Positions 1,752 through 20,188 of a DNA stretch of 37,561 nt are shown here, in pieces (within the stretch, counting starts at the first letter, position 1; each line of letters starts with the position of its first letter). The notes below the pieces were generated by a model. The model had not been told where the DNA came from. It searched no databases and saw nothing but the letters and a program-made list of their open reading frames with translations. The stretch is taken from IMG/VR virus record IMGVR_UViG_3300043415_000050, positions 1-37,561 of that record, one strand, 5' to 3'. Position numbers and translations under genes: made by a program. The DNA is from a virus (Duplodnaviria; Caudoviricetes).

Positions 1752-1777
1752 GACTTGGCTCCAGTGTAGAGTAGTGA

Positions 1778-1846
1778 TGTAGGGCGCGGCTGGTTAGCTC
1801 ACTACACTAACCGGAGTTTCGAACCTCCTGCCGCGCTTACATTATA
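1778..1846 (-). ncRNA. Three-way-junction RNA (c4-antisense-like), copy A, with TATAAT -10 box
   Basis: TATAAT at 1846-1841. Closing stem GCGCGGC/GCCGCGC, hairpins GGAG-GTTCGAAA-CTCC and GGTTAG-TGTAGTGAG-CTAACC. Confidence 0.7.
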
Positions 1847-1849
1847 CCG

Positions 1850-2689
1850 CTATCGCTTGTATCTGGCTTCTTTTGCCTTGCGTTCTTCAGCGTTTCTGGC
1901 GGCAATAAACTCAGCCGTGGTCATTTCGCTGTACGCTTTCTTATTGCCGACACTAGCACTCGTCCCATGCAGCGGCTTAATCGGCTGCGGTGCTTTGCTA
2001 GTCGTTGGCGTGCCATTGATGATCTGCGCCAGCTTCATTCCGGCAGCAATCGGCGGCAGTCGTGCAATTTCATACGCCAGTTCCGGATTCTTTCCCAGCT
2101 GGTAGGCAATCATCGGGCCGTTATCCAGTTCCAGCACTGCCTGCCGGATGGTGGGATTTTGCGCCAGATTCGGGTCAGACGTAATCGTTTCAATCACCGC
2201 ATCATAGTCGGAGAACTGCTGCCTTGCCGCGTTCTCAGCATTGGCAATCCGCTGCTGTGTCTGCTGCTGGCGCTGATATTCCTCGCGCTGCTGCCATTCC
2301 TGTGCAATAGCCTGCCGCGCTTCCAGTACAGCTGACTGCTTGTTGTACTGGAACATGTCCTGCACATAACGCGGATCATAAACGCCGCCGCTGTATTGAT
2401 TAGGGTCAGGCGGTTGTATCTGCTGTTGCTGTGGCGCCTGTTCCTGTGGTGCTGCATACCGTTCCAGCATGGCCTGCTGAGTCGCCAGCGCTTTTTCTAG
2501 TCGCTCAGCCTGACGCCTAGCCTCATGTTTTTCGCGTGTCAGCTCATCGATGCGCCGACGATACCAAGGGTCTTTTTCCTTCGGCTGTTCCTCAGTTTCT
2601 TCAACTGCTTCCGGTGCTTCCGCTTCCGTCTGATCTGATACAGCCTCAACTGCATCAGGCGTCTGCATTTCTGCTATTTCTTCGCTCAT
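1850..2689 (-). CDS. Capsid scaffolding protein
   Basis: Acidic N-terminus, RRRIDELTREK coiled coil and basic C-terminus. Located between portal and capsid. Confidence 0.8.
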   Translation of the reverse strand: MSEEIAEMQTPDAVEAVSDQTEAEAPEAVEETEEQPKEKDPWYRRRIDELTREKHEARRQAERLEKALATQQAMLERYAAPQEQAPQQQQIQPPDPNQYSGGVYDPRYVQDMFQYNKQSAVLEARQAIAQEWQQREEYQRQQQTQQRIANAENAARQQFSDYDAVIETITSDPNLAQNPTIRQAVLELDNGPMIAYQLGKNPELAYEIARLPPIAAGMKLAQIINGTPTTSKAPQPIKPLHGTSASVGNKKAYSEMTTAEFIAARNAEERKAKEARYKR

Positions 2690-2697
2690 AATCGCCC

Positions 2698-4854
2698 CTA
2701 TGATTGCACGGGTTTAGACTCCCCGGTGAGTGCATTGACGTCCGGCTGGCGCGTCATGCTGCCAGCCCCTCTTGCCGCCGGTGCTTGGGGTCTTGCCCCG
2801 CCAGCGGATTGCATTTCGGGTTGAGTCATCGCCTGCGCTTCCATCGCTTCCAGCTCGTCACCCGTCTCCATCGCTTCCGTGCTGCCTGCCTGCATCATCA
2901 TCAGCAGGTTTTCACGGACAGCCGCCTGTAGCTGCGTGTCCGTCATCATGACCTTGCCTTCAACTTCCATGCGTTTCGTCTGGCTGTCGTACCATTCCCG
3001 TTCAACGCGCTGGATTTCCAGCATACGCTGATCGCGCAGACCTTGTATCTCGGCTGACATGTGTTCCATCTGGCCGGCCAGCTGCTCCATTTGCTGCTGA
3101 GCCTGGACAACCTCTGGTGGCACTTTGTCGCCGTTCTGCGCCTGTGGCTGGAGGTTTGGTGGCAGCATTAACTGCAAACGTCTGGCAATTTCCTCAGCGC
3201 CCGGCCAGTCCATATTCTTCACCATCAAGTCGCCGATGATTTGGAACAGCGCTGGGTTGGCCTGCGTCAACGCCAGCATCATCTGGGCTGATTCATCGCG
3301 TTTGGTGGCGTAAGACGGGCCGCTATCGCAAACTACATCGTACCGGCCAATAGTCGGATTGTAGATCGATTCAATGCCGGGATTATCAGTGTACGCGCTG
3401 GCCTGCGGCAGATTCGGATCAAGCCTGACAGACCGCGCTGCACCGTCCTCGCCGATAATGCGGGCAATGCGGGGCCGGTCGTAAACGTGCGGAATCATGT
3501 CAAGAATGACGCGGCCAACCTGCCGGATGGAACGTGACAGATTGTCTTGGAAATGGAAGATAGCGGTGTCTGCCTGCTTCTGTCTGAGCGCCAGCGCACG
3601 GCCAGACGTTTCGTTACTCTGATCGCCCAGCGATGGCTGATAGATGCCCATTGATTGCATGATGTCGTTTTCAGCCAGCTGGACAGCCTGCATGATTGCG
3701 CTGGATGCCTGCGGAGGCTGGGCGCGCTGTGGTGGGCCTACTGGCGTGCCGGCAATGCTGACGGGGTCATATTCAAGATATGCAAGGGTTGCCTTGTTCG
3801 CCATTCCCCAATTCGGATCGGTCTCAAACTGCCCAGCCACGCCGATGAATGGCGCTTTCGGTGCGAGTGCCACGTTCTCAGCGTTTGCTGACAGGTAATA
3901 GTTGTACAGGCGCTGGGCATCCTTGGCATTGCGCACCAGACCGGACAGGTAGCGCCTGCCCTGTAGCCACAATTCCTGCCCGATGACGGGAATGACTGGA
4001 ATGTAACAGGTAGGAATTTCGGTGCGTTCTAGCACCTTGTCGCCAGTCACTTTGCACCACATGCAGCGTTTAACGTCGGCAATCCTGACGCGCATCGGAT
4101 CAGCAGGGTCTACAATCTCGCGCTGCTCGTGTTCGATGTAATAGTATTCAGCAACGCGCACTGAGTCGGTCGTGTACCAGCCCTGAGCATCGCCGTTCCC
4201 AGCTGTGGCAAAACTGGTCATGTCAACGTCAGGGTAAAGGCGATTGAACTCGTCCTTGCTGACTTCTTCAGCGATGATGCACCATTCGGCATCCGATCCG
4301 TCAGGCGCATGACTGTGTGGGTCGTAATAGACCTTTAGCGGGTCGGGTATGCGGTCGATGTAGATTTCCTGATCCCACCCGTCACTGTCTGCCCAGTCAT
4401 TCCTAATGCGAATGTACCCGATGCCGGCATCTACCGACCATTCAATAGCCGTGTCATAAGCAATGCTGGCGTTCGAGTTGTCCTGAATGTGCCGGACAAT
4501 ACCCATCAGCACTTCGGCGGTTTTTTGATCGGCTTCGTCGTTGGCCGGACGATAGCGCACACTGGGCGTGTTTTGTCGAATCTGATTGACCACGCGGTTA
4601 CGGAATTGCAGCAGCCTGTTCACGACAAGCATGGGGCGCTCTTGGCCTGGGCGGTTGCGATCGCTGCGGGCAATTTGACTCCATTGATCTCCAAGCCGCG
4701 CAAACTTGATGTCATCTAACATCAATTCGCGATTAGCTGACTCGGCCTCCATCGCAAGATCAAACTTCTTGCGGATCTCGCGCAGCATGTCGTCATCGAA
4801 ATTGCCGGTATCGTCATCGTCTGACGGTGCAGCAGTGGTGATTAGATTGTCCAT
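2698..4854 (-). CDS. Portal protein, P22 gp1-like
   Basis: GDQW, RPMLVVNRL, GLVRNAKDAQRLYNY and NETSGRAL motifs plus a C-terminal coiled-coil barrel. Start moved to ATG 4854 (GGAG upstream). Confidence 0.93.
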   Translation of the reverse strand: MDNLITTAAPSDDDDTGNFDDDMLREIRKKFDLAMEAESANRELMLDDIKFARLGDQWSQIARSDRNRPGQERPMLVVNRLLQFRNRVVNQIRQNTPSVRYRPANDEADQKTAEVLMGIVRHIQDNSNASIAYDTAIEWSVDAGIGYIRIRNDWADSDGWDQEIYIDRIPDPLKVYYDPHSHAPDGSDAEWCIIAEEVSKDEFNRLYPDVDMTSFATAGNGDAQGWYTTDSVRVAEYYYIEHEQREIVDPADPMRVRIADVKRCMWCKVTGDKVLERTEIPTCYIPVIPVIGQELWLQGRRYLSGLVRNAKDAQRLYNYYLSANAENVALAPKAPFIGVAGQFETDPNWGMANKATLAYLEYDPVSIAGTPVGPPQRAQPPQASSAIMQAVQLAENDIMQSMGIYQPSLGDQSNETSGRALALRQKQADTAIFHFQDNLSRSIRQVGRVILDMIPHVYDRPRIARIIGEDGAARSVRLDPNLPQASAYTDNPGIESIYNPTIGRYDVVCDSGPSYATKRDESAQMMLALTQANPALFQIIGDLMVKNMDWPGAEEIARRLQLMLPPNLQPQAQNGDKVPPEVVQAQQQMEQLAGQMEHMSAEIQGLRDQRMLEIQRVEREWYDSQTKRMEVEGKVMMTDTQLQAAVRENLLMMMQAGSTEAMETGDELEAMEAQAMTQPEMQSAGGARPQAPAARGAGSMTRQPDVNALTGESKPVQS

Positions 4855-4864
4855 AGTTACTCCG

Positions 4865-6127
4865 TCAGAATGATTGCCAGCTTCCGGCACGTTGCGCAGT
4901 ATTATCACGCCTTGTCCGCTGATTGTCATTTTTCATGCCGTCGATGGCGGTTGCAAGGTAGCGGAAGGCGTCAGCTCCGTGTGAAAACTCATCGTGCAGC
5001 GGCTTGCCTGCCGTGTCAGTCTTAGCGTTAATCGCACGGCGGTAACGCTTCAAACACTCTTGCAAGCGTGCAGTCTTGGCCTTGTCCATCCAGACACGCG
5101 GGAACAGCATCCTGGCTGCCCTAATGCCGCCCTCAACGTCACCAATGGGAACTATCTCGGTATTCCAGCCCATCGATTTCATGATTTCATCAGCAGAATG
5201 GCCGGTTCGGTAGTCTTTCACAACAGCGTCGTGCGGCAGGTAGAGCGTTCCCCAGTTGTAGTTTTTCTGCCTGAGCAGGTTGGAGTACCAGTCCAGCGTC
5301 ATATGCGACTCTTCCACATAGTCGATGATTCTGCACTCTGAGCCAGCTCGCTGGACAATGATAATCGCCATCGAGTCTGCCCACCCCAGATCGAACACGG
5401 CGTGCGCTTTCAGCTTTGGGTCGTGCGTGACTGCCGTAATCCGGCCATCGTCAAACATGGTTTGATACTCGCCAGCATAGATTGCGCCATCCACCACTGA
5501 CTTGGGTTTGCCTTCCCAGATGTTGTCGTACTGATCCGGCATGGTTTTGAGGCAGTGTTCACGCTCACGGTCGAGAACATCGGGGAACCACGGATTGTCA
5601 CGCCAGTTGATCGCAATCACCAGACTGTCAGGCGGCGTGTTTACAATGAAACGCTGGTAAGTTGGGTCGGTGTCTAGGTCAGGGTTGAGCGTGAGCCATA
5701 TTTCTGACTCAGGCTTGCGGATCGTTGGCGTAAGGATTGCCCAGGATTTGTCTGATACGGACTGGGCTTCCTCTATCCATACCTTGTCCATACCCTCAAA
5801 ACTTTTGATTGACTCAACACTGTGCATAGCAAGACCAGCAAACGAAAACAAACTGCCGTTCTTGCCGCGTATCTCAGTCTCCAGCACTTCGTAAAACTGC
5901 CCAAGCCCTAACGCCTGTATCTGATCCGTCAGGAGCTGATGCACTGATTGCTTAATAGACTTCTGGATCTCTCGAGCGCACAAAATGCGCAGCGGTTTCG
6001 ATGCGGCAAGGATCAGCAGCGCACGAGCCACTGCCCATGACTTGCCGGAGCCTCTACCGCCGTGCAGGACTTTGTAGCGGTAGGGCTGGAAGATAGGCTT
6101 GAGCTTGGCGGGGAATTGGGCGTTCAT
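4865..6127 (-). CDS. terL: Terminase large subunit (PBSX-type)
   Basis: Walker A GGRGSGKS, Walker B WIEEAQ, and RNase H-like FDLG...D and HGADAFRY motifs. Confidence 0.96.
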   Translation of the reverse strand: MNAQFPAKLKPIFQPYRYKVLHGGRGSGKSWAVARALLILAASKPLRILCAREIQKSIKQSVHQLLTDQIQALGLGQFYEVLETEIRGKNGSLFSFAGLAMHSVESIKSFEGMDKVWIEEAQSVSDKSWAILTPTIRKPESEIWLTLNPDLDTDPTYQRFIVNTPPDSLVIAINWRDNPWFPDVLDREREHCLKTMPDQYDNIWEGKPKSVVDGAIYAGEYQTMFDDGRITAVTHDPKLKAHAVFDLGWADSMAIIIVQRAGSECRIIDYVEESHMTLDWYSNLLRQKNYNWGTLYLPHDAVVKDYRTGHSADEIMKSMGWNTEIVPIGDVEGGIRAARMLFPRVWMDKAKTARLQECLKRYRRAINAKTDTAGKPLHDEFSHGADAFRYLATAIDGMKNDNQRTRRDNTAQRAGSWQSF

Positions 6128-6129
6128 GT

Positions 6130-6546
6130 TTATAATCCAAACACCACAATGGCACTTGGAAATGGCGCGGCATTTTTACACCCACCAAACTTGATTCGCC
6201 CACGAATAAACACAACATGTCCTTTCATAACATAGTCATGCCACCATGCCGTATCAGTCCTAGCTGGAAGCAGACACACAATTAAAGCGCCGGCAAGAGA
6301 GGATTGATAAGCCTTTTTAACCCATTGACCAATGTTTCTGCCATAAGGCGGGTTCATCCAGCAGCGCCCTGTCCACTCTTGTGCTAATCCATTTTGTTCT
6401 GGCGTGTAGTAGTTCAAACATTTTGCATTTTCAGCAATAGCGCAGACGTCAGTTTGAAATTGATAGATGGCGTTGTATTTATCAAACAGATATTGAGGCG
6501 TGTACCACATGTCTGTTTTACTGCTAAACATGAGATCAGTGTTCAC
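6130..6546 (-). CDS. Phage DNA N6-adenine methyltransferase (phage Dam family)
   Basis: WYTPQ, DVCA, NGLAQEW, MNPPY, LLPARTDTAWW and GRIKF motifs. The GTG start overlaps the upstream TGA (alternative ATG at 6531). Confidence 0.9.
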   Translation of the reverse strand: MNTDLMFSSKTDMWYTPQYLFDKYNAIYQFQTDVCAIAENAKCLNYYTPEQNGLAQEWTGRCWMNPPYGRNIGQWVKKAYQSSLAGALIVCLLPARTDTAWWHDYVMKGHVVFIRGRIKFGGCKNAAPFPSAIVVFGL

Positions 6547-6701
6547 TGTCTCACGCCGCGCAACTTGCACTCACCCACTGCTTTAGCCGCTGGCTTCCCG
6601 AAATGACAGCACCAAGCGTTGTACTGCGCCAGATGTTTCGCTGGCGCCTTGCGTCCGGCGTTGTGGAAGCTGGGGCAGGATTGGCAGTGGGTGGGTTTCA
6701 T
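6543..6701 (-). CDS. Small Cys-rich protein (52 aa)
   Basis: MKPTHCQSCPSF...WCCHF...GECK. Fills the gap and is coupled to the MTase by a GTGA overlap. Confidence 0.6.
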   Translation of the reverse strand: MKPTHCQSCPSFHNAGRKAPAKHLAQYNAWCCHFGKPAAKAVGECKLRGVRQ

Positions 6702-6723
6702 TGGTTTGTGGAGTCCAGATGGC

Positions 6724-7044
6724 TCACTCAGGCTCCACAAACGAAATGCTGATTGAGTGATTGACGGGGCCGCCGTTAGGCCCTGACACAGTTGTGTCCG
6801 TCCTTGCAAGTTTTGGGACGTGGTATTCGATGACGGATTGAAACAGCTGAAACGCTTTTTCTGGGTTATCAACTGCAACCTTATCAAGCCATTCAGCAAG
6901 ACGATGCGCATTGCCGTCCACAAAATCAGCAATAGCCGCCCGTGCATCAGCAGTCGAGCGATTAACAGACCCTTTTGGCCTTCCTTTGCCAGCGTTGGTT
7001 AGATTTTCTGGAGCGCCTCCCGGCTTACCCCTTGCTCCTGCCAT
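6724..7044 (-). CDS. terS: Probable terminase small subunit
   Basis: N-terminal GRPKG motif and C-terminal SGPNGGPV-beta tail typical of TerS. Upstream of terL. Confidence 0.7.
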   Translation of the reverse strand: MAGARGKPGGAPENLTNAGKGRPKGSVNRSTADARAAIADFVDGNAHRLAEWLDKVAVDNPEKAFQLFQSVIEYHVPKLARTDTTVSGPNGGPVNHSISISFVEPE

Positions 7045-7071
7045 GATCCTTGTACCCCGTCAGTAAATTAT

Positions 7072-7341
7072 TTACTGCTCCATCTCCACACACTCGCCAA
7101 GCAGTGCGGCGTATCCAGCAAGGTCAATGTAATCATCTGCATGAAACTTTCCCTGCAACCCTCTTGCCAGCTTCAGCGCCACCATCAACCGCCATCCGTC
7201 AGTTTCACTTAACGGTATGCGTGACATGGCATTGTAAATCTTGACAGCCCTCGCCATGCTCCGTTCTGAATCCTGATCGCGTATCGCCGCTCGATTCTTC
7301 AGCGCGTCGAGTGCTTCCTGTAGAAATTCCTCGGCTCTCAT
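7072..7341 (-). CDS. DUF6378-like helical phage protein
   Basis: MVALKLAR...HADDYIDLAGYAAL signature. Confidence 0.75.
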   Translation of the reverse strand: MRAEEFLQEALDALKNRAAIRDQDSERSMARAVKIYNAMSRIPLSETDGWRLMVALKLARGLQGKFHADDYIDLAGYAALLGECVEMEQ

Positions 7342-7574
7342 GTTTCATCTTTGTTTTTAGTAATGACGCTAATTTCAATTTCGTACTGGTTGCCGTGTTT
7401 GTCCTCCACAACGCGGACAGCTCCAGGTGGCGCCCAATCCATCAGCGCCGCGATAAAAGCGCTTGTGCAATCCACCTTGCTAGACCACAAAGAATCGTCT
7501 TTTTTGCTCACGGTGCCAATGTAAATTCTGTCTGTCAGCGGTGAAGCGCCGATGTGAATGTCGTTAAGTTTCAT
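7338..7574 (-). CDS. Hypothetical phage protein
   Basis: 78-aa ORF with ATGA coupling to the next gene. Confidence 0.7.
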   Translation of the reverse strand: MKLNDIHIGASPLTDRIYIGTVSKKDDSLWSSKVDCTSAFIAALMDWAPPGAVRVVEDKHGNQYEIEISVITKNKDET

Positions 7575-7615
7575 TTTTTATCCCTAAATCCGCCACGGCG
7601 CAGGTGAATGTTTGT

Positions 7616-7813
7616 TCATGTTCGCTCCACAAGCAGCTTAAACGCATGGTGCCGCGCTCTGGCCAGCTCCATCCCGCCGAGCGTCAGACGGTTCACTGTT
7701 TCCAAGAACTCATCAATCGCCTGATCGGATGGCATCGACATTCTGGCCGCTGCAACGGAATCGTATAACCAGCGTTCATCATGCTCCATTGCTGTCGTTG
7801 ATCCGGCCATCAC
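7616..7813 (-). CDS. Hypothetical protein
   Basis: Coupled to the upstream HNH gene. Start uncertain. Confidence 0.6.
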   Translation of the reverse strand: MMAGSTTAMEHDERWLYDSVAAARMSMPSDQAIDEFLETVNRLTLGGMELARARHHAFKLLVERT

Positions 7814-8289
7814 AGCGCACCTTGTGCTTGACTCAATGAGTCAAAATACTGAGCTGGCCGACCAGGAATGTCAACACGGTATTGTCCGCGGCGTTCCAGA
7901 AAAGTGACGTTTGGCGGCAGTTTGGCTACTGGTTCGTTTTTAACGCGCCTGTTTAGTTTGATTGTTCCGGCTTCCAAGTAATCGCGCGCAAGCGTAAGGT
8001 TATCAATGCAATCGTTGAACTTGTCATCGTCCATGTGCTGGATGTAACCAGGCGGCCATGCTTGATGTTCAATCAGCCAGACAAGGCGGTATCTGGCAAC
8101 ATTGGCGCCAGCGACGTAGATGAGATAACAGTTGTTTGATTTGCTGACACTGCCAGCTTCGGCGCCGACCTTGCGGGGCGTGCCGTGATTGCGGCGTGCG
8201 TGATAGAACCGTCCTGTCTTGCGGTCGTATGTGTAGCGTTCTGTGACGTAGGACAGAATGTCCTGTATGGTCATTGTTGTGTATCTCAT
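7810..8289 (-). CDS. Divergent HNH endonuclease-like protein
   Basis: YDRKTGRF, RLVWLIEHQAWPPGYIQHMDDDKFNDCIDNL, and a degenerate AP2-like tail. Confidence 0.7.
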   Translation of the reverse strand: MRYTTMTIQDILSYVTERYTYDRKTGRFYHARRNHGTPRKVGAEAGSVSKSNNCYLIYVAGANVARYRLVWLIEHQAWPPGYIQHMDDDKFNDCIDNLTLARDYLEAGTIKLNRRVKNEPVAKLPPNVTFLERRGQYRVDIPGRPAQYFDSLSQAQGAL

Positions 8290-8813
8290 GCAGCCACCTG
8301 CTTTCTAGGCACCGGCTGGAACGTGTGCAGGTCTGCTTTGGCAGCAAGGTAAGCAGCGTGGGCGGCTTCTGGTGTTGCGAACAGGCCAAGAGAACGATAT
8401 TTGCCGTTAAGCTTTATTCTTGCTTGCCATTTGTTTTCTTTTTTGCGCCAATTAACGCCAGTAAAGCCTGAAGTATTATCGCTTCTCAATTTGCGTGTTT
8501 GAGCGTTTTCTGCGCTAGTGGCTTCACGCAAATTATCAATGCAATTATTTAAACCGTCGCCATCAATATGGCTTACATGATTTGCAGGCCAAGCGCCGTA
8601 AACATACAGCCAAGCCAGCCTGTTAGCATAATAATTCTTGCCGTTAATGATTATTCTTCTGCATTGACGTTGGCCGTTGTTTTTCACCAAAACCTGACCA
8701 GCAACGCTTCCGGCTTTTAGCCCGCCACGGTCAAAGCGCCAAGTAAACACGCCAGTGGTGGGGTTGTAGTGCAGAAGTTCGCGGAGCTGTTCCGCGGTAA
8801 GAACGTTGTTCAT
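8286..8813 (-). CDS. HNH homing endonuclease with C-terminal AP2 domain
   Basis: LHYNPTTGVFTW, RLAWLYVYGAWP..HIDGDGLNNCIDNLREAT, and NTSGFTGV..KWQARI..LGLFATPEAAHAAY. ATG at 8813 after GAGGGAG. Confidence 0.9.
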   Translation of the reverse strand: MNNVLTAEQLRELLHYNPTTGVFTWRFDRGGLKAGSVAGQVLVKNNGQRQCRRIIINGKNYYANRLAWLYVYGAWPANHVSHIDGDGLNNCIDNLREATSAENAQTRKLRSDNTSGFTGVNWRKKENKWQARIKLNGKYRSLGLFATPEAAHAAYLAAKADLHTFQPVPRKQVAA

Positions 8814-8841
8814 GATTGCTCCCTCAGCCCCTATGAGTGGT

Positions 8842-8894
8842 TGTGGCAATGGAAATAGGGTTTTTCCATGTTCGGCTTCGAATACCTAGCCACA
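8842..8894 (-). ncRNA. Three-way-junction RNA (c4-antisense-like), copy B
   Basis: Closing stem TGTGGC/GCCACA, hairpins GGT-ATTCGAA-GCC and ATGGAAA-AACCCTA-TTTCCAT. Confidence 0.68.
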
Positions 8895-8899
8895 GGGTC

Positions 8900-8928
8900 A
8901 GTATGCCACAACGCAACGATGCCTGCAA
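8900..8928 (-). promoter_or_regulatory. Sigma70-like promoter for RNA copy B and the HNH gene
   Basis: TTGCAG-17 bp-CATACT. Confidence 0.55.
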
Positions 8929-9254: not shown

Positions 9255-9466
9255 CCCCCTACTGCCTTCAGGGGGTCTAGGGGGTCACGACCCCCTGCTT
9301 CACGCAGCATCACGACCGACCCCCTCAACCCCCTGCGTTTACCCTTCCTAAAGGAAGGGGTGTAAACTGGGGGGTCTTGGGGGGTTCCCAGGGGGAACAG
9401 GTCATGTGCCTTGCCCCCCCAAACCCCCTCAACCCCCTAGAACCCCCTAGGGGGTCGCAGGGGGTT
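9255..9466. repeat. Putative replication origin: G5/C5 iteron-like direct and inverted repeats
   Basis: Many ACCCCCT/AGGGGGT units, CCCCCTCAACCCCCT twice, hairpin ACCCCTTCCT-AA-AGGAAGGGGT and palindrome ACCCCCTAGGGGGT. Lies immediately after the primase-helicase gene. Confidence 0.7.
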
Positions 9467-9475
9467 AAAAATAGA

Positions 9476-11380
9476 TCATAAATTGTCAACATCCTTTCTC
9501 ACCATCATAGCGCTGATTTGAATATCGTTTATAAATATCCAGCCATTTTCATAATACTGAATAATCTCATCATTTATTAACGACATAATAATTCCGCTAT
9601 CCCTCCCTGGTTCAATTTTATTATCTGCGGTTCTTTTTTTCATGCCAATATCATCAATTAAAAATTGATGCAGCGCAGAACGGGTTATGTAAGGTTTCCC
9701 TTGCCTAGTTTCCCCGCTGGCTTTAATCCAAGCCAATTCCATGATCCTCAAGTTTTCATTGTGCTTGGCTGGCTTCTTACTGACCGGTTTTTCTTCCCTG
9801 ACAACGCCATCCTCCATAGTAAAAACAGCCCCCATAATGGCCGTTCCATCTTCATCCGGCCACCCCAAGTCAATCTGTTCCAGCTTGCCATAAAATGACT
9901 TTGGCGGCTCTGCATCCTTCATCTTTGTGCAGCTCACTTCAATCAAGCCATCTTCCACACCTGACACCAGCACGGCAGCATCCAGCGATGCCTTCCATGC
10001 GCTTGATCCACGCGCCCTTGTCTTGGCTTCCCCAGAATGGCCCGTGTGATGATTAAGTATCACGCTTGATCCCAGCGCACTGGCAACAATGCTGCACGCA
10101 TTGAACATGTTTCTCGTGTCTCTGGCGCTGTTTTCATCGCCGGTCATGTGATTGTTCACAGTGTCCACAAAAATGGCCGTAATAGGCTCGCTGGTGGCTT
10201 CTCTGACTGCGTTGATGATCTTGGCAGCGGCGACAGGCGAATCCATGTCAATGCCGCGATTAGAAATGTACAGGTTATCTAGTTGGCTCACCTGGTGCTT
10301 GAGGCACCATGCCTTGACGCGCTGCCTTAGCCCGTAATTTCCCTCACCAGCCATGTAAATCACGGTACCTGCCTTAATCTTGTGGCCATGCCATTCCATG
10401 CCGCAAGCAATGTGACACGCCATGTCCAGCGTGATAAAAGTTTTGCCCACGCCGCTTTCGCCGTAGACCATGCTGGTGGCTTGATCTGGTATCCAGCCCT
10501 TAATGATCCATTCAAGCGGAGCAGGCTGACTCAGGTAAGACGTTGCCTGCGTGTAGTAGTAGTCACTGGTTGCAGCTTTGTAACTCTCAAGCAGGTCAGT
10601 TGCGCCCTGACTGCCCAGTGCTACATCTGCTGCAATGTCGTGTTCTGGTTCGTAACGGCTGACAGATCGCACAATCTGCGCCAGCTCGGAAGATGGCAGC
10701 GGCATTTCACAGCGTGTTTCATTGGCAACTGACAATGCGGCCATGATTTCAGCCTCAGTAAAGCCATAATGCCGCATGGCACCGCCCATTGATGCCAGCC
10801 CATCATTCCTGTTACCCTTGATAAGTTCGCCAGCTGCCGCCTTGTGCTTTGGTTCCGTCTTGCGCTTGGACAGGTAAGCCTCTTTCCATGCCTGAGGAAT
10901 CACCATTGGCGCTATGCCATCGGTTGGGTCTGATGACCCCTCCCATTCATATGACTTGCCATTAATGCAGGACGGCCATGCAAGGAAATAGCGCCCGTCT
11001 GCCAGCAGGTCTATGCCGTCTGCCAGTTTGCATGATTTAAAGTCCTCATCATAAAACGCTATGTAATGCTGGCCGCCGCCTGCTGTCAGCTGCATCACGC
11101 CATCTGGCGCTGCACCGTGCGTTTCCGTCCATTTCTGCCAGGATTCTTCCCCGCCATTTCTGGGGTCAACATCAAACACCAGAATGCCAGAAACATTCCC
11201 ACTGGCTATGCCTATGTTGTAATCAGGGTTCTCCGCCCACCAATTGGCTATCTGTTTCTGATCTCTGGTGGCATCATGCACGCCATGCAGCGTGGCAGGC
11301 TGCTTGCCATTGGGAACAACAGGCAAAACATGCCACCCCCAAGACGCATACTGTAGCGCAGCCTCAAGCCTGCTGGTCAT
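9476..11380 (-). CDS. Bifunctional primase-polymerase + PriCT + RepA/AAA_25-like helicase
   Basis: GWHVLPV..GKQP, NIGIASG, VFDVD and TAGGGQHY (Prim-Pol); GNRNDGL (PriCT-1); GESGVGKT, VDT and HHTG..RGSSA (helicase). Confidence 0.92.
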   Translation of the reverse strand: MTSRLEAALQYASWGWHVLPVVPNGKQPATLHGVHDATRDQKQIANWWAENPDYNIGIASGNVSGILVFDVDPRNGGEESWQKWTETHGAAPDGVMQLTAGGGQHYIAFYDEDFKSCKLADGIDLLADGRYFLAWPSCINGKSYEWEGSSDPTDGIAPMVIPQAWKEAYLSKRKTEPKHKAAAGELIKGNRNDGLASMGGAMRHYGFTEAEIMAALSVANETRCEMPLPSSELAQIVRSVSRYEPEHDIAADVALGSQGATDLLESYKAATSDYYYTQATSYLSQPAPLEWIIKGWIPDQATSMVYGESGVGKTFITLDMACHIACGMEWHGHKIKAGTVIYMAGEGNYGLRQRVKAWCLKHQVSQLDNLYISNRGIDMDSPVAAAKIINAVREATSEPITAIFVDTVNNHMTGDENSARDTRNMFNACSIVASALGSSVILNHHTGHSGEAKTRARGSSAWKASLDAAVLVSGVEDGLIEVSCTKMKDAEPPKSFYGKLEQIDLGWPDEDGTAIMGAVFTMEDGVVREEKPVSKKPAKHNENLRIMELAWIKASGETRQGKPYITRSALHQFLIDDIGMKKRTADNKIEPGRDSGIIMSLINDEIIQYYENGWIFINDIQISAMMVRKDVDNL

Positions 11381-13182: not shown

Positions 13183-13190
13183 GGATGTGC

Positions 13191-13214
13191 GGCCACAGGG
13201 ATGTGGCCTTTTCT
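13191..13214 (+). terminator. Probable weak intrinsic terminator after ssb
   Basis: GGCCACA-GGGA-TGTGGCC followed by TTTTCT. Confidence 0.6.
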
Positions 13215-13226
13215 GAAGGAGATAAG

Positions 13227-14240: not shown

Positions 14241-15880
14241 TCCTGCGAGATTATCAAGTCAGATCCCGTGAAATGCTCATGGACTGGTTCAAGGAAAACA
14301 AAGAAGGCCATCCAGTGGTGGTGCTGCCGACCGGAAGCGGGAAATCGGTCATTATTGCTGATTTTATCAAGCACGTCATGACGCAATGGAGTGAAAGAAA
14401 CTTCAGAATCCTCATGCTTTGCCACCAGAAAGAACTGATCGAACAGAACGCAGCCAAGATGCGCCACTTCTGGCCGAACGCCCCCATGGGAATCTACTCA
14501 GCCAGTGTGGGTAAACGACAAATGGGAGAACCGATCACGTTTGCAGGCATCCAGTCGGTATGGAACCGATCTGAGGAACTTGGTCATATTGATCTGTGCC
14601 TAGTGGATGAGTGCCACGCCATTGGAGCCACCGAGCAAGGCAGGTATAGGCAGCTTCTGGACGCGCTTTTGGCTATCAATCCAAAAATGCGAATCATAGG
14701 TTACAGCGCCACGCCTTACAGATTGGGACACGGCATGATTACGGACAAGCCAGCTATTTTTGATGCGCTGATAGAACCCATCAAAGTTGAAGAGCTGATC
14801 TATCAGGGCTATTTGTCCGTCCTGCGCAGCAAGATGACCATAAAACGCCTTGACGTGTCTGGCGTTAAGAAAAGTCATGGCGAGTACGTTGGGAACGCAT
14901 TACAGGCCGCTGTGAACACGCCGGAGAATAATGACGCCATCGTACGGGAGATCATTAAATACGGCGCAGACAGGCGCTCATGGCTTATTTTCTGCACTGG
15001 CATAGCCCACGCTCAGAACATCACGGATTGTTTGATCCAACAAGGCGTTACGGCAGCCTGTGTGACTGGTGAAACATCCAAAACGGAGCGTGAAACATTG
15101 CTGGCAGACTTCAAAGCCGGAAGGATCAGGGCTATGACTAACTATGCCGTTTTAACCACTGGCTTTGATGCGCCTGAGATTGATCTGATCGCCATGTTAC
15201 GCCCCACCATGTCGCCTGGCCTTTATGTCCAAATGGCCGGCAGAGGCATGAGGATTGCCGATGGTAAACATGATTGTCTGGTGCTGGACTTTGCCGGAGT
15301 GGTCGCCATGCACGGGCCTATTACGGCTGTACAGCCGCCTAGGCGCAGCGGCAATGGCGATGGTGAGGCACCGTTCAAGCTGTGCGAAGAATGCAACGAG
15401 ATCTGCAAGATCAGCGAAAAGGAATGTCCTGCTTGCGGCTGGATGTTCCCGCCGCCAAAGCCCAAAACGCTGGAACTGCACAATGATGACATCATGGGCA
15501 TTGATGGCGTCGAGATGGAAGTAACCGGATGGCACTGGAAACATCACATTGGCCGCTCATCTGGTATGGAAATGCTGGCGGTAACGTATTACGGCCATTT
15601 GTCAGATGCGCCAGTTACCGAGTATTTAACAGTTACGCATGAGAACTATGCTGGAGAAAGAGCGCGTAACCTGCTGATTTCAATGGCAAACAAGGCTGGC
15701 GTATCGCTGGCAGATGCTCGCGACATTTTTAGCACTGTTGATGTTATGAATACGGGAGAACCGCCGTTCATGATTGAGCATAAGCGGGATGGGAAGTTTA
15801 CACGAATCATAGGGAGGGAGTGGATTGAACGAAGATCAGGAACAAGCCAGGTTGGTGCAATGGTTTCGGCGCACGCATAG
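14237..15880 (+). CDS. SF2 helicase (RadD/YejH-like) with zinc ribbon
   Basis: LRDYQ, PTGSGKS, DECH, SATP, QMAGRGMR and CxxC..CxxC motifs. Confidence 0.93.
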   Translation: MILRDYQVRSREMLMDWFKENKEGHPVVVLPTGSGKSVIIADFIKHVMTQWSERNFRILMLCHQKELIEQNAAKMRHFWPNAPMGIYSASVGKRQMGEPITFAGIQSVWNRSEELGHIDLCLVDECHAIGATEQGRYRQLLDALLAINPKMRIIGYSATPYRLGHGMITDKPAIFDALIEPIKVEELIYQGYLSVLRSKMTIKRLDVSGVKKSHGEYVGNALQAAVNTPENNDAIVREIIKYGADRRSWLIFCTGIAHAQNITDCLIQQGVTAACVTGETSKTERETLLADFKAGRIRAMTNYAVLTTGFDAPEIDLIAMLRPTMSPGLYVQMAGRGMRIADGKHDCLVLDFAGVVAMHGPITAVQPPRRSGNGDGEAPFKLCEECNEICKISEKECPACGWMFPPPKPKTLELHNDDIMGIDGVEMEVTGWHWKHHIGRSSGMEMLAVTYYGHLSDAPVTEYLTVTHENYAGERARNLLISMANKAGVSLADARDIFSTVDVMNTGEPPFMIEHKRDGKFTRIIGREWIERRSGTSQVGAMVSAHA

Positions 15881-16145
15881 CGGTGTGCGAATCTTTGCAA
15901 TACCGAACGGAGGCCATAGGCATCCGGCTGTTGCAGCCAAGTTGAAGGTAACAGGCGTTATGCGAGGGGTGCCAGACTTGTTTATACCTGAATGGCGCGT
16001 TTGGATTGAGATGAAAGTTAAGGGAGGCAGGCTATCGCCAGATCAGAAAGACTGGATAGAGTATTTGGAAACACACGGATACCGCTGCATTGTCGCGTTT
16101 GGCGCTGATGATGCTATTAATCAGATCGGAGAACTACAATTATGA
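15825..16145 (+). CDS. VRR-NUC nuclease
   Basis: EQ..L, FAIPNGG, GVPDL, IEMK and LSPDQKDW motifs. Confidence 0.88.
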   Translation: MNEDQEQARLVQWFRRTHSGVRIFAIPNGGHRHPAVAAKLKVTGVMRGVPDLFIPEWRVWIEMKVKGGRLSPDQKDWIEYLETHGYRCIVAFGADDAINQIGELQL

Positions 16146-16360
16146 ACTACTGCATCAACTGCTTTTTCGCCCGCTCAGAAATGGACGTCATCTTCTGCCG
16201 CCGCAACGCTCCACGCGCGGCTCTGGTTCAGCCGACCGACGACCCCAACGAAATGCCTGTGTTTTACGCCGAGTGGCCCATGGTCGCAGACGATGACTGG
16301 TGCGGGGAGTATCGGGAGGCTGTGAGGGTGGATAATCAGAACAGAGAAAAGATGAATTAG
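16142..16360 (+). CDS. Small Cys-rich phage protein
   Basis: CINCFF..CRRNAP..WPMV...DWCGEY. Confidence 0.75.
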   Translation: MNYCINCFFARSEMDVIFCRRNAPRAALVQPTDDPNEMPVFYAEWPMVADDDWCGEYREAVRVDNQNREKMN

Positions 16361-16363
16361 CTA

Positions 16364-16393
16364 TTGACACAGGTCAAATTAACACCATATACT
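16364..16393 (+). promoter_or_regulatory. Near-consensus sigma70 promoter for the accessory operon
   Basis: TTGACA-18 bp-TATACT. Confidence 0.72.
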
Positions 16394-16429
16394 GTGTCTA
16401 CATCAACAAGCACAAAGGGAGTGCTAGAC

Positions 16430-16717
16430 ATGACGCCACACAAACACGCCGCCATTATCAAAGCTTGGGCCGATGGCGCTCAGGTTCAAACACGCATGAA
16501 TGGTATGCCGGAAAGCACATGGAGCGACATTGATTCACCAGCTTGGCATTCTGATTATTTTGAATACCGCATCAAGCCAACCATTATCACGCACGATCTG
16601 CGCGTAACGTGGAGTTCCATCATGAACCTGCCAGTGCAGGATTCCGGCATCCAGCGCAACCTTCGCCTTACTTTTACCGATGGCGTTCTGACAGACGCCA
16701 TTGTCATTAAGGAGTAA
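16430..16717 (+). CDS. Hypothetical phage protein
   Basis: PHKHAAIIKAWADGAQVQ...EYRIKP motif common in phage early genes. Start moved to ATG 16430. Confidence 0.75.
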   Translation: MTPHKHAAIIKAWADGAQVQTRMNGMPESTWSDIDSPAWHSDYFEYRIKPTIITHDLRVTWSSIMNLPVQDSGIQRNLRLTFTDGVLTDAIVIKE

Positions 16718-16719
16718 TC

Positions 16720-17106
16720 ATGAAGCACCTTTTGACAGCCGCACTACTGGCGGCATCATTCAACGCCAGCGCAGCCAGTGAAGTTCAGTGCATGGCAGAC
16801 GTCATCCACGCTGAGTCTCGCGGGGAGGGCGAGGCAGGCATGGCCGCAGTCGGTTACGCCCTGTTTAACCGCGTCAAGCAGGACGGGTTCAAACACAGCG
16901 TTTGCTGGCACTCGCGCCATGGGTTCCACAGGCTCCACGCTGACTTTGACCAGAAGGCATACACAGTGGCCGCGCTGGTGCTGGCTGGCGTGGAGACAAA
17001 CCCCATTGGCAACCGGACGCACTTTGACAGCGGGAAGCGTACGCCTAGTTATGCTGTGGCTGTGAAGCGCATAGGAAAGCAGCGGTTTTATAGGGTGGCG
17101 AGATGA
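16720..17106 (+). CDS. SleB-like cell wall hydrolase (Hydrolase_2) with signal peptide
   Basis: N-terminal signal ending ASA, CMADVIHAESRGE..GMAAVGYALFNRV, and RIGKQRFY. Confidence 0.85.
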   Translation: MKHLLTAALLAASFNASAASEVQCMADVIHAESRGEGEAGMAAVGYALFNRVKQDGFKHSVCWHSRHGFHRLHADFDQKAYTVAALVLAGVETNPIGNRTHFDSGKRTPSYAVAVKRIGKQRFYRVAR

Positions 17107-17306
17107 AAACAATAGTTGCCGCAGTTGCAATAGTAGCGTTTATTGCGTGGATTGTTTCTGGCATTGTTAAGTATGAGCGTGATTTTACACAGAAATGTAT
17201 TGCTGCTGGCGGGATGCCAAGCCGTTACATAACAATGATAGGCAAATCAGGATACCAAGAGCGCCTTTGCATCAACCCTGAAAGCGTCATTGAGGTCACG
17301 CCATGA
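17103..17306 (+). CDS. Small membrane-anchored protein
   Basis: N-terminal TM helix, CIAAGG and a second Cys. Confidence 0.7.
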   Translation: MKTIVAAVAIVAFIAWIVSGIVKYERDFTQKCIAAGGMPSRYITMIGKSGYQERLCINPESVIEVTP

Positions 17307-17485
17307 CCCCCCGCGAACAGCTCCGCGCACTGATGCGCAAGCACCAGCTGCACGCCCATCAAGTGGCCGCCTTGCTTAGCGTCAAGCCGAACACCGTGGC
17401 GTGTTGGGTGGCGGCAAACGTACCTAAAGAAATACCAGCAGTGAAGCTGGAACTACTCGCCCTAAAACTGGAGAACATGAAATGA
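17303..17485 (+). CDS. Small HTH protein
   Basis: LRALMRKHQL..HQVAALLSVKPNTVACW. Confidence 0.75.
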   Translation: MTPREQLRALMRKHQLHAHQVAALLSVKPNTVACWVAANVPKEIPAVKLELLALKLENMK

Positions 17486-17706
17486 TGCCATACAAAAAAC
17501 GATACACGCTATTGATGCGCTTGCAAGACCACGCCGGAGTGCTGATACAGGCCGCGTTGCTGGTGTTCCTTATCATTGCGGCATACGCGACCTATAAACC
17601 GCGCAGCAGGCCGGATATGGCTCTTAACGCAGCCGTAGACAGCTGCCAAGCTCGCGGGTATTTCGATGTAGGCACCGTTAGGGTTCAGTGCCAGGTGGGG
17701 GAGTGA
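17482..17706 (+). CDS. Small membrane-anchored protein
   Basis: One TM segment and a C..G.F..C motif. Confidence 0.68.
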   Translation: MMPYKKRYTLLMRLQDHAGVLIQAALLVFLIIAAYATYKPRSRPDMALNAAVDSCQARGYFDVGTVRVQCQVGE

Positions 17707-17708
17707 GC

Positions 17709-17933
17709 ATGATTACGACAGTAACCACCATATTTAACGGCCACCCGCTCACAGTTGAAATTGGCTACGAACCAGGCGAGCCACGCACGTTTGACGATGA
17801 AGGATCAGACGAGGAACTGGAAATCATGCGCGTCTGGTATCAGGGCATTGAAGTCACAGGGTTAATTGGCGAGGACATGCTGGACAAACTGCACGCAAAG
17901 TTGCTGAGCGAAAAGGGGTGCAATGATGACTGA
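17709..17933 (+). CDS. Hypothetical acidic protein
   Basis: ATG at 17709 after GGAG. YEPGEP..DEG..EELEI motif. Confidence 0.7.
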   Translation: MITTVTTIFNGHPLTVEIGYEPGEPRTFDDEGSDEELEIMRVWYQGIEVTGLIGEDMLDKLHAKLLSEKGCNDD

Positions 17934-18474
17934 CCATCTTGTTGACGCCAACAAAAAGGTGGCGCTGTCTGTGGATGATGTGATTAAGATGGCGCGTGAG
18001 GCTGGCATGTTAGTAGTGGATGATCGCCTTATCGCAACAACGGGGCCGTTAATGGCTTTTGCTGCTGCGATTGCCAAGCATGAACGTGAGGAATGCGCAA
18101 AAACGTGTGAAGGCTGGATCGGCCCCAGCTACGAGTTTGACTTGGGCAGGCAGCATTGCGCCAAGAAAATCCGCGAAAGAAGTGATGCGTGGTTGCAGCA
18201 GATTGACGACGAAAACCTGCTGAAAATGGCAGCAAAGGCCGCCGGAATTGAAATTGTTGGCTGGTATAAAGGCTCCCCTATGACTCCGTTGCCGCATCCA
18301 TTTATCAACAACACTCAAGACTGGAACCCGCTTAAGTATGACAAAGACGCACTCGATCTGGCAACGCGGATGGATTTGACCGTCAAGTTTGTTGATAGAG
18401 GCGAGGGCCTGCCCGAATCTTTCCGCAGGGGTATCGTGCTGTATGCAGCAAAAGCGGCAGGTGGCCATGACTGA
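17923..18474 (+). CDS. Hypothetical two-module protein (A+B fusion)
   Basis: The N-half resembles 18467..18703 and the C-half resembles 18909..19184. Confidence 0.75.
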   Translation: MMTDHLVDANKKVALSVDDVIKMAREAGMLVVDDRLIATTGPLMAFAAAIAKHEREECAKTCEGWIGPSYEFDLGRQHCAKKIRERSDAWLQQIDDENLLKMAAKAAGIEIVGWYKGSPMTPLPHPFINNTQDWNPLKYDKDALDLATRMDLTVKFVDRGEGLPESFRRGIVLYAAKAAGGHD

Positions 18475-18703
18475 CGAAGAAATCATCCGCATGGCGCGTG
18501 AAGCTGACAGGGAATGGGATTGCGATAGAAACATGTATGAATGGCTTGAGCATTTTGCCAGACTGGTTGCCGCTCAGGAGCGCGAAGCTTGCGCCAAAAC
18601 ATGCGAATCTATCGCAAGCAATCCCAGTTCACTCTGGAGCGAGTCCGGTTGTTGGGCGCACGCTGCCGAGGCGTGCGCTGCTGAAATCAGGGAGCGGTCA
18701 TGA
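18467..18703 (+). CDS. Hypothetical protein, module A
   Basis: IIRMAREA..FARLVAAQEREACAKTCE..CAAEIRERS. Confidence 0.75.
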   Translation: MTDEEIIRMAREADREWDCDRNMYEWLEHFARLVAAQEREACAKTCESIASNPSSLWSESGCWAHAAEACAAEIRERS

Positions 18704-18912
18704 AACATTGGAAACACGCCCCAGCCTGGGCGAGATACAGGGCAACTGATGGAGACGGGTCTGTCTGGTGGTTTGAGATGCGGCCAGTGGCCGTGCTTTG
18801 TGAGGAAACTACGCACTCTCGCTGGGAAGCGTGGTCAGGCAGGACTGAGCGCGACAGGCGCAGCAAGGGCAATTTTGAGCAGTTTGCTGGGAGTTTGGAG
18901 GCAAGGCCATGA
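18700..18912 (+). CDS. Hypothetical Trp-rich protein, module C
   Basis: W..AP.WA...A.D.DG..WWFE..P...SLEARP. Confidence 0.75.
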   Translation: MKHWKHAPAWARYRATDGDGSVWWFEMRPVAVLCEETTHSRWEAWSGRTERDRRSKGNFEQFAGSLEARP

Positions 18913-19184
18913 GCGATGATGAACTGACTAAACTGGCAGCAGAAGCGTTTGGCATTGATGAATATGAGTCTCAATTTTGGGGATTTGATCCGCTCAATGA
19001 GGATGCCGATGCGTTTAGGCTGGCGGTTAAACTAAAGATTTCAGTTAAGTTTAACAGTAATTTTGTCGGGACTCTTCACGAGGACATTATTGGGTGCGCT
19101 GAGTTTTACTTTACCGATCCTTACGCAGCCACCCGCCGCGCCATTGTCAGGGCTGCTGCTGAGATAGGGAGGGGCATGGAATGA
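18909..19184 (+). CDS. Hypothetical protein, module B
   Basis: LTKLAAEAFG..FDPLNEDADAFRLAVKL..TRRAIVRAAAEIG. Confidence 0.75.
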   Translation: MSDDELTKLAAEAFGIDEYESQFWGFDPLNEDADAFRLAVKLKISVKFNSNFVGTLHEDIIGCAEFYFTDPYAATRRAIVRAAAEIGRGME

Positions 19185-19390
19185 AACCCGACTGGAATGA
19201 CGCGCCAGATTGGGCGCAGTGGTTAGCGATGGATAAAGATGGAACATGGTGGTGGTTCGAGCGAGAGCCGGGAAAAGGCGGTGTTTCATGGGGTGGATGG
19301 GGTCAACTGGATAGTTGCAGGTGTGTAGAAGCCTTTGGGCACCAAATACATGGAAAATTGTGGAGTCAATCATTGGAGCGACGCCCATGA
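19181..19390 (+). CDS. Hypothetical Trp-rich protein, module C paralog
   Basis: DWNDAPDWAQWLAMDKDGTWWWFEREP...SLERRP. Confidence 0.75.
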   Translation: MKPDWNDAPDWAQWLAMDKDGTWWWFEREPGKGGVSWGGWGQLDSCRCVEAFGHQIHGKLWSQSLERRP

Positions 19391-19647
19391 CCGACCGCTA
19401 CCTAGCAGGCACAGCCACGTTACGCACGCCAGCCGAGGAACCGCCACCGGCCAAGACCAAAATACTGTTGCTATCGCCATACGGGATACTCAGCATTGGG
19501 CCTTGGAGCGACTGGTTTGTGGCCTGGGCGCCGCTGCCGAAGATACCGGCTCATATCAAAGAACAAATGAGGATGAAAAGATGCTCTGCCCCATCTGCAA
19601 ACAGTGGACAACAATCAAAGACAGCCGTCAGACCAAGCTTAACATGA
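19387..19647 (+). CDS. Hypothetical protein (DUF551-like W.PLP motif)
   Basis: EEPPP..KILLL..G...VAWAPLPK. ATGA-coupled start at 19387. Confidence 0.65.
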   Translation: MTDRYLAGTATLRTPAEEPPPAKTKILLLSPYGILSIGPWSDWFVAWAPLPKIPAHIKEQMRMKRCSAPSANSGQQSKTAVRPSLT

Positions 19648-19781
19648 CGCGCCGCCGCCACGAGTGCGGGAACGGCCATCGGTTTAACACGCTTGAGATG
19701 ACCGTGCAGTTTTACGCCGAAATTACGGGAATCGACATGGGAAAGCTTGCTGAGATCAAGCATGACGGTGATATAATTTAA
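19581..19781 (+). CDS. NrdR-N-like zinc-ribbon protein (66 aa)
   Basis: MLCPIC...IKDSR...TRRRHECGNGHRFNTLE. ATG at 19581 after GAGG. Confidence 0.8.
   Translation: MLCPICKQWTTIKDSRQTKLNMTRRRHECGNGHRFNTLEMTVQFYAEITGIDMGKLAEIKHDGDII
19769..19777 (+). promoter_or_regulatory. Extended -10 promoter
   Basis: TGaTATAAT, a perfect extended -10, with no credible CDS downstream. Confidence 0.7.
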
Positions 19782-19782
19782 C

Positions 19783-20042
19783 GGCAGGCCATGGCCCACT
19801 GCTGACCGAGGGGAAAGGCCTTTCTGGTGGCGCATCGACCAGTTACCCCGATGCCTGACACGTCCGAACAGGGGGCGGCGTACCGGTAACGGCGCCTGAC
19901 ACAGGTAATCCTGCGAGCCGGTGGAAGGCCGGCATCATTATCCATAGGGATGACGGCTTATATACGGTCAGTCGTCATCCCTGCGGGTAATGTGTATTCA
20001 ATCGACCCCGCAGAGCCTCATGCTTGCCGTGGGGCTTTTTTA
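19783..20042 (+). ncRNA. Unidentified ~255-nt structured RNA
   Basis: Bounded by a promoter and a terminator. Contains an H-type pseudoknot, at least five hairpins and GCCTGACAC twice. Confidence 0.62.
20014..20042 (+). terminator. Intrinsic terminator (rightward)
   Basis: AGCCTCATG-CTTGC-CGTGGGGCT followed by a T tract. Confidence 0.8.
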
Positions 20043-20047
20043 TGGGC

Positions 20048-20075
20048 AAAAAAAACCGCTAGGGGTGCTAGCGGT
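20048..20075 (-). terminator. Intrinsic terminator of the late/lysis transcript
   Basis: ACCGCTAG-CACCC-CTAGCGGT followed by T7 on the minus strand. Confidence 0.85.
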
Positions 20076-20126
20076 CAAGTACGCCACAAAGGCCTGAGAA
20101 CCATATCGATCATTATCTCGGAATGG

Positions 20127-20188
20127 TGGTAGAATAGCAAGGCGGCTAGGGTAGCTCCTGAACCACTGTAAAACCGACAGTGTGCCGC
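20127..20188 (+). ncRNA. Three-way-junction RNA (c4-antisense-like), orphan copy C, with extended -10
   Basis: TGgTAGAAT promoter, GCGGC/GCCGC closing stem, AGGG-TAGC-TCCT hairpin, GAA linker and CACTGT-AAAACCG-ACAGTG hairpin. Confidence 0.68.

Follow-up and report, generated by a model that had tools for sequence, protein, structure and literature searches.

Three int-alpA-like RNA elements in a phage genome, two of them before endonuclease genes: predicted leader RNAs and a possible two-site brake on translation

The window considered here is the whole of the IMG/VR virus record IMGVR_UViG_3300043415_000050, 37,561 nucleotides (nt) from a tailed phage (Caudoviricetes). The record is complete (37.6 kb) and encodes a P22-like portal, a terminase and a Prim-Pol/AAA primase, with a capsid gene that spans both record ends. 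Three elements in it, named A, B and C, are predicted to form small branched RNAs (Table 1). A sequence-only reading of the window had drawn each as a three-way junction behind a -10-like hexamer and had linked the three to homing endonucleases. Positions, strands and folds were confirmed, with 4-6 nt between hexamer and fold, and Pfam and PHROG place unrelated nucleases behind two of the elements, GIY-YIG/NUMOD3 behind A and HNH_3-AP2 behind B. Two features had been missed: C has no downstream gene, and the variable loops of A and B are complementary to their own leaders (sites 1 and 2 in Table 1).

Table 1. Elements A, B and C, their parts and the adjoining genes, in window positions
Feature	Position	Strand	Remark
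A: -10-like hexamer, TATAAT	1841..1846	-	from sequence; 4 nt before P1; no good -35
A: three-way junction	1784..1836	-	fold z -4.5; divergent int-alpA-like, without J2/3 linker
A: P2	1813-1828	-	4-bp P2; palindrome 1818-1823 (6 nt)
A: P3 loop	1799-1805	-	variable loop
A: site 1, proposed decoy	1771..1777	-	7-nt complement of entire P3 loop
A: site 2	1764-1769, within 1759..1769	-	5-nt match as scored; one base from GGAG
A: Shine-Dalgarno-like GGAG of leader	1759-1762	-	from sequence
GIY-YIG/NUMOD3 homing endonuclease	1167..1751	-	Pfam NUMOD3, PHROG 314; between scaffold and major capsid genes
B: extended -10-like hexamer, CATACT	8900..8905	-	5 nt before P1; identical in L564
B: int-alpA-like three-way junction	8842..8894	-	Rfam RF02996, 34.8 bits, E 0.0012
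B: P2	8874-8886	-	palindrome 8877-8882 (6 nt)
B: P3 loop	8856-8862	-	variable loop
B: site 1	8829..8834	-	6-nt complement of P3 loop
B: site 2	8821-8824, within 8819..8824	-	4-nt match; overlaps GGAG
B: Shine-Dalgarno-like GGAG of leader	8819-8822	-	from sequence
HNH_3-AP2 endonuclease, 175 aa from ATG	8286..8813	-	Pfam; absent in L564
HNH-like paralog, 159 aa	7810..8289	-	PHROG 99; directly behind B-type element in L564
C: extended -10-like hexamer, TAGAAT	20130..20135	+	6 nt before P1
C: canonical int-alpA-type scaffold	20142..20188	+	R1 41.6 bits, E 7e-11
C: P2	20149-20159	+	palindrome 20153-20156 (4 nt)
C: P3 loop	20170-20176	+	variable loop
Stretch with promoter, C and two short tandem repeats (20196-20205)	20103..20209	+	absent in L309; ends at endolysin stop codon
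M15 peptidase endolysin, convergent	20207..20650	-	3' end can pair with C 5' arm, 17-bp helix

The minimum free energy structure of each element is a three-way junction of stems P1, P2 and P3. Energies are -28.1 kcal/mol for A (z -4.5), -14.0 for B (z -2.0) and -16.4 for C (z -1.7), so that B and C, taken alone, are just modestly stabler than shuffled sequences. The TG of an extended -10 box can be read off the sequence for B and C. A consensus promoter scan reported none of the three hexamers because it demands a -35 match. A descriptor joining the junction to a -10 box, written with the elements already known and thus partly circular as a test, matched the window four times against a mean of 0.08 (maximum 1) in 25 simulated windows; three of the matches are A, B and C, and the fourth, at 28516, lies on the strand opposite the open reading frame (ORF) 27664-28608. 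With two loop-matching sites added, the descriptor gave two matches in the window and none in the simulated sequence.

The int-alpA motif was reportedly described by Weinberg and colleagues in 2017. Its Rfam entry, RF02996, is typed 'Gene; sRNA' and has a gathering cut-off of 35.8 bits. B scores one bit below that value, and A and C have no relevant Rfam match, which leaves all three elements short of the cut-off. A further model, R1, was built from 39 viral copies, none of them from the window, and without A-type copies, which MAFFT misaligned when they were included. B scores 23.7 bits on R1 (E 3e-5); A scores 8.5 bits (E 1.9), which is not significant, and 13.2 bits on its opposite strand. 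In the Rfam and R1 alignments, B and C have P1, the UA-G..C-GAA junction and a variable P3, and A is without these junction bases. The Rfam consensus resembles B and C in its P1-P2-P3 junction and junction bases, and its tail is complementary to its own loop. It differs in that its structure line shows no loop-tail pairing and reaches no further than site 1. Absent from the model output are the gene association, the P2 palindrome and site 2; nor does the model detect A (no J2/3 linker, 4-bp P2) or C. Judged by alignment and score, B and C are int-alpA-type RNAs and A is a divergent form, and the idea that the family was an unrecognised one had to be given up.

Homologs are numerous. A pattern drawn from the C scaffold matches an estimated ~1500 IMG/VR stretches (121 of them listed), and an enterobacterial-type copy has counterparts in 17 phage records. 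Among 20 viral loci with a C-type scaffold, 15 passed the int-alpA cut-off, and in 14 of these the Rfam match coincides with the pattern match. R1 matched 13 of 68 genome loci found with a loose pattern (68 of 121 listed). The records with genome matches bear the labels alpha-, beta-, gamma- and deltaproteobacteria, Planctomycetaceae, Synergistaceae and Acidobacteriota. The covariation anticipated for homologs was recovered: outer P1 and P3 carry 135 double-sided changes against 42.6 when shuffled. P2 and inner P1 are nearly invariant in the R1 sample, partly through selection. In the literature, 'int-alpA' was found in the accessible parts of two papers (PMC12370729, PMC13612085), in one case as gene names and in the other as a listed, uninvestigated Rfam match. 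The word 'alpA' is absent from the main text of PMC5737381, the supplement of which may bear on novelty, and the accessible part of PMC10690425 does not mention int-alpA. Neither the core sequence of the motif nor a description of a two-site mechanism was found in the literature searched, a body from which most subscription papers fall outside.

The family set comprises 133 R1 matches, reduced to 111 distinct copies with 79 distinct loops (22 duplicates, edge-cut or unparsed matches dropped). In 101 of the 111, the P3 loop has two complementary downstream sites, of at least 5 and at least 4 nt, within 55 nt, and loop and sites covary. Over 300 swaps of loops and leaders the mean was 18% (maximum 29%), and an earlier, cruder parse had given 43/61 against 5.7%. 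This upholds the claim of a conserved scaffold whose variable loop answers to short complementary sites on the downstream gene. In the window the rule holds for A (7+5 nt) and B (6+4 nt) and fails for C. Site 1 starts ~12 nt past the inner P1 strand, and the spacing between the sites peaks at 14-15 nt. In all but one of the 90 copies with a start found (89/90), 1-13 nt separate the end of site 2 from the start codon. The stronger match is site 1 in 72/101. Both sites share at least four loop bases in 89/101, and for this reason a single loop cannot occupy both. A -10-like box precedes the fold in 58/111 copies (15.5 when shuffled). Counts of G-U versus A-C, made as a gauge of strand or RNA-level action and uncontrolled for composition, give no usable signal; they are 15 vs 52 and 27 vs 36 in the site flanks and 34 vs 31 in the stems.

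Two further regularities concern the loops. A palindrome of at least 4 nt is present in P2 in 18 of 23 distinct variants, against 8.8 when shuffled, and 0/2000 shuffles reach 18; among non-canonical variants it is present in 11/13 against 6.0 expected (5/2000 shuffles). Counted by copy, P2 is palindromic in 100/111, and P3 loops are palindromic in 5/79. The second regularity is that one protein family, DUF1376, is led by nine different loops, which points to a code at the RNA level. Distinct codes within one genome, as proposed for the window, are borne out for A and B, whose loops have their longest match in their own leaders, and not for C, whose loop finds no site of at least 4 nt in its own leader and a 6-nt match in that of A. 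In a related complete genome there are likewise two copies, which differ from each other in loop and palindrome; each precedes a nuclease-like gene (the second gene assigned by inspection). Pairs of int-alpA-type copies ~500-600 nt apart were also seen in L003, L014, L036, L066 and L075; in the two checked, L003 and L036, the loops differ and each best matches its own leader.

These features suggest that A and B might be leader RNAs that act as concentration-dependent translational brakes on their endonuclease genes, with C as a relic, an account that we prefer to its rivals and to which we give slightly less than an even chance. A and B would stand at the start of their own transcripts as predicted three-way junctions. 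In a lone transcript, the single P3 loop would be captured by site 1, because this site is transcribed earlier and is usually the stronger, and the ribosome site would be left open. Once transcripts or short 5' fragments became abundant, their palindromic P2 loops would kiss, and an extra or repositioned P3 loop could then cover site 2 and stop translation. The outcome would be negative feedback, a short pulse followed by a ceiling on a protein harmful in excess (nuclease, replication initiator, antirepressor), and distinct loops would keep several copies per genome mostly independent. Extended to the family, int-alpA leaders could be a widespread protein-free autoregulation in which an mRNA counts its copies by kissing and moves a loop directed against the ribosome-binding site (RBS) from decoy to RBS. 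Such a device would have two exchangeable codes, the kissing palindrome and the guide loop; in several phyla it would have been borrowed as a pulse generator by selfish nucleases and by replication initiators, and phages would stack differently coded copies. This wider claim is tentative, and we would call it possible rather than probable.

Several observations weigh against the brake. Site 2 is the stronger match in 28/101 copies, and P2 has no palindrome in 5/23 variants (11/111 copies). Both counts would suit a static throttle in cis, in which the loop of a single mRNA alternates between its two sites, translation is held at a fixed low level, and P2 is structural or binds a protein; the observed covariation would suffice for it. 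Such a throttle leaves unexplained the palindromes of differing P2 loops, which are far above chance, and an elaborate fold where a weaker ribosome site would serve. We regard it as unlikely, although far from negligible. The copy-counting brake has further points to answer. Site 2 is short (4 nt in B, 5 nt in A), and the loop-site pairings are pseudoknots, which are beyond scoring by the folding tool. The palindromes of A and B are identical and would therefore not be orthogonal at the kissing step. A U-rich run follows P1 in only 47/111 copies, so that a short terminated form is not general. The copies are related to each other, and a single pattern was the starting point for most of them. 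Competing folds exist for the longer B leader (z -0.35), and the homolog of B in L564, an 88%-identical phage, no longer folds as a junction once 8 nt of flank are added (z -0.09).

The sequence-only reading had looked to the C4 and CI RNAs for kin. In phages P1 and P7, the C4 RNA uses short complementary sites on its own transcript to control the gene behind it, and P4 CI and P1 C4 are processed to discrete stable RNAs by RNase P. P4 CI and Gifsy-1 IsrK are likewise small branched RNAs that head a phage transcript and control the downstream gene through short complementary sites on it (PMC4825925, accessible in part). By analogy, a stable ~55-nt RNA released by termination or processing might pair in trans with both sites of new transcripts, even those made by a superinfecting phage if it shares the code, and no mRNA dimers would form. 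The junction directly after the -10 box, the linker after it (74% pyrimidine, with the U-rich run of 47/111 copies) and the diversification of loops before one gene family would all fit, and the short and long isoforms of IsrK and the pairing of P4 CI with seqA and seqC offer precedent (same source and extent). However, the Rfam models C4, c4-2 and isrK matched none of A, B and C at E up to 5-10 and nothing in 20 related loci, and the proposed membership was dropped. CI, which causes termination, has one pairing partner upstream (seqA) and one downstream (seqC) (PMC4825925, in its accessible part), whereas both int-alpA-type sites lie downstream, within ~45 nt, one of them at the ribosome-binding region. 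With folds that start 4-6 nt after the -10 box, there is no space for an upstream target between promoter and fold (start sites are predicted). According to the same part of that paper IsrK activates, and A and B are followed by endonucleases, not by an icd/ash-type leader gene. Nor would the trans route in itself require the P2 palindrome. A C4-like RNA acting in trans is thus an unlikely explanation, if one worth keeping in view.

Partial precedents exist for the copy-counting brake. In T4-type homing endonucleases (I-TevI/II/III, segB, Aeh1 mobE), RNA structure limits translation of the endonuclease by simple stems that sequester the RBS and are relieved by a late promoter inside the hairpin (PMC2988022, accessible in part). 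Here, in contrast, the ribosome site would be reached by the loop of a separate junction with a competing second site, and the complete fold lies downstream of the promoter. RNAs dimerise by self-complementary loops, and in crystals of the preQ1-III riboswitch, where it forms a dimer, the RBS tail of one monomer is paired with a loop of the other (PMC7357161, likewise in part). Unlike that riboswitch, the present elements have no known ligand, and dimerisation of the int-alpA-type motif is a prediction. On this account an orphan Rfam motif becomes a directly testable switch with named base pairs, for which the window supplies natural experiments: the A scaffold with three loop/site sets, B with its stems replaced and its loop kept, and C gene-less and mismatched. 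If control depends on dimers, mRNAs that pair in trans with their own kind would here govern translation, something rare in nature; the device would account for the tolerance of phages for homing endonucleases and the metering of replication initiators, and would offer synthetic biology a re-codable feedback part of ~90 nt.

The 95 viral copies lead endonucleases in 23 cases (HNH, NUMOD4-HNH, GIY-YIG, EndoVII-like), replication proteins in 34 (DUF1376, HTH_36, O- and P-like, primase, helicase), antirepressor-type proteins in 2, others in 34 and no ORF in 2. Among the 94 first-called ORFs, 70 were scanned with Pfam and 27 with PHROGs, and the rest were assigned by blastp; leave-one-out recall of endonuclease calls was 14/22. 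As a control, 346 ORFs were called mechanically in 134 unrelated viral loci, and 3 of them were endonucleases. The enrichment before endonucleases is real, and the element is not nuclease-specific; the association claimed by the earlier reading stands to that extent, and its specificity falls with the 34 of 95 copies before replication proteins. The enrichment might also suggest that the element guides the nuclease as an RNA, or that it acts in the DNA as an operator to which the encoded protein binds, like the operators that let intron endonucleases of T4 repress their own promoters (PMC2988022, in its accessible part). Unlike the guides of RNA-guided nucleases, the int-alpA-type loop has its complement in its own leader and not in external DNA, and the downstream genes are mixed; 72 of the 95 viral copies were not placed in the class that precedes endonucleases. 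Where nucleases follow, they come from unrelated families, each with its own DNA-binding domains. Moreover, nine loops serve a single protein family, and one and the same loop core stands before two genes, HNH-AP2 in the window and the HNH-like paralog in L564. The guide role, in the earlier reading the less likely alternative, did not survive this comparison, and we consider either form of the idea highly improbable.

Element A is accompanied by its nuclease wherever it was found. The same scaffold was present in 12/12 GIY-YIG relatives found, and a strict A-scaffold pattern retrieved 13 IMG/VR stretches, namely those 12 and L300, where it also lies ahead of a GIY-YIG gene. The cassette follows the scaffold gene in 10/10 inspected (of the 13 stretches). 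Three P3 loops occur on the A scaffold before the same GIY-YIG gene (in the window, the L242 type and L300), each matched by its own sites. An 87%-identical relative, L254, has neither A nor the GIY-YIG gene and carries another gene in that place. Together with the scaffold in the GIY-YIG relatives, this argues that A and the nuclease come and go together, apparently at one genomic site only. The notion of a module that travels with its nuclease therefore applies to A at that site; it does not extend to B, which L564 keeps without HNH-AP2, or to C. In L254:4274-4620 (+), a 115-aa gene followed by a terminator-like hairpin occupies the scaffold-capsid interval, a hot spot for inserted genes. 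A blastn search of A against cultured phages gave no match.

By the two-site rule, A would function like the int-alpA-type family, and R1 does not support its membership by sequence; a relative, L272, looks intermediate between the A type and the canonical form. Another explanation is a switch triggered by a ligand or protein, in which a host or phage factor at the conserved junction would shift the loop between the sites, for example on induction or stress. Junction bases of the canonical form are invariant or nearly so (partly through pattern selection), and two alternative pairings are riboswitch practice. Yet A lacks the conserved J1/2 and J2/3 bases and still obeys the two-site rule, and no metabolite is common to the downstream genes. 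A triggered switch is improbable in our view. As for the origin of A, the first 15/16 bases of its opposite strand (1783-1838 +) resemble the 5' end of some canonical copies; P3 of A may derive from an inverted canonical copy, or the likeness may be chance, and other A-type copies are without it. P2 of A (1813-1828 -) has what we take to be a likeness to a tRNA T-arm. A loose A-type pattern gave chance matches, with none A-like among the filtered matches listed (106 distinct contexts); a tRNA-like stretch, L154, was among its matches.

B is followed by two related genes, the HNH-like paralog being 42% identical to the HNH-AP2 protein over 77 aa. L564 keeps the B promoter, the loop core and both sites, and its element has compensatory changes in P1, replaced P2 and P3 stems and a different palindrome. 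Taken as the 49-nt element alone, this homolog has the junction as its best fold (-14.7). Among relatives of HNH-AP2, R1 matched 1 of 41 loci (L272, itself in the training set), a count that is a lower bound, since neither A-type copies nor the L564 homolog are found by R1. Other HNH-AP2 relatives are preceded by single long hairpins (L262, ~650-720; L268, ~1150-1220) instead of three-way junctions, possibly another type of leader.

The stop codon of the convergent endolysin gene lies 18 nt past C. In L309, an 88%-identical relative, C and its promoter are absent, and the window has a net insertion of ~85 nt at the endolysin stop. C is probably a relic cassette that has lost its gene; no homolog of C with its gene was found among 54 matches for its P3 pattern, and R1 had no match in 80 endolysin loci. 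For a long C transcript, pairing with the end of the endolysin gene in the 17-bp helix is the more stable prediction (-33.1 vs -28.9 kcal/mol), and an antisense role of C on the endolysin may be considered. That helix (window 20138-20222 +, G-U pairs included) lies at the boundary of the insertion, where the 5' arm of C pairs with the antisense strand of the 3' end of the endolysin gene, and may stem from insertion by microhomology or from inactivation of C. A candidate trans target of the C loop, an 8-nt match just upstream of ORF 17103 and beside a B-loop match, was judged to be chance because it is present in a relative without C and lies within coding sequence.

Elsewhere in the window, the 314-aa ORF 27664-28608 (-), among virion genes, had no Pfam match; it contains an HGT...F..F...G.G.YF stretch, presumably reminiscent of the ADP-ribosyltransferase-like domains of polyvalent phage proteins. 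A Dam-type DNA adenine methyltransferase gene (6130-6570 -) adjoins the terminase genes. Directly after the primase gene, direct and inverted G/C-run repeats (~9300-9480), also found in L564, have an origin-like appearance. A promoter-like site at 19750-19777 (+) is followed by hairpin-rich intergenic sequence (19750-20080), where back-to-back terminator-like hairpins mark the convergence of early and late genes; L309 has an extra segment of ~85 nt in the region that matches 19750-20080.

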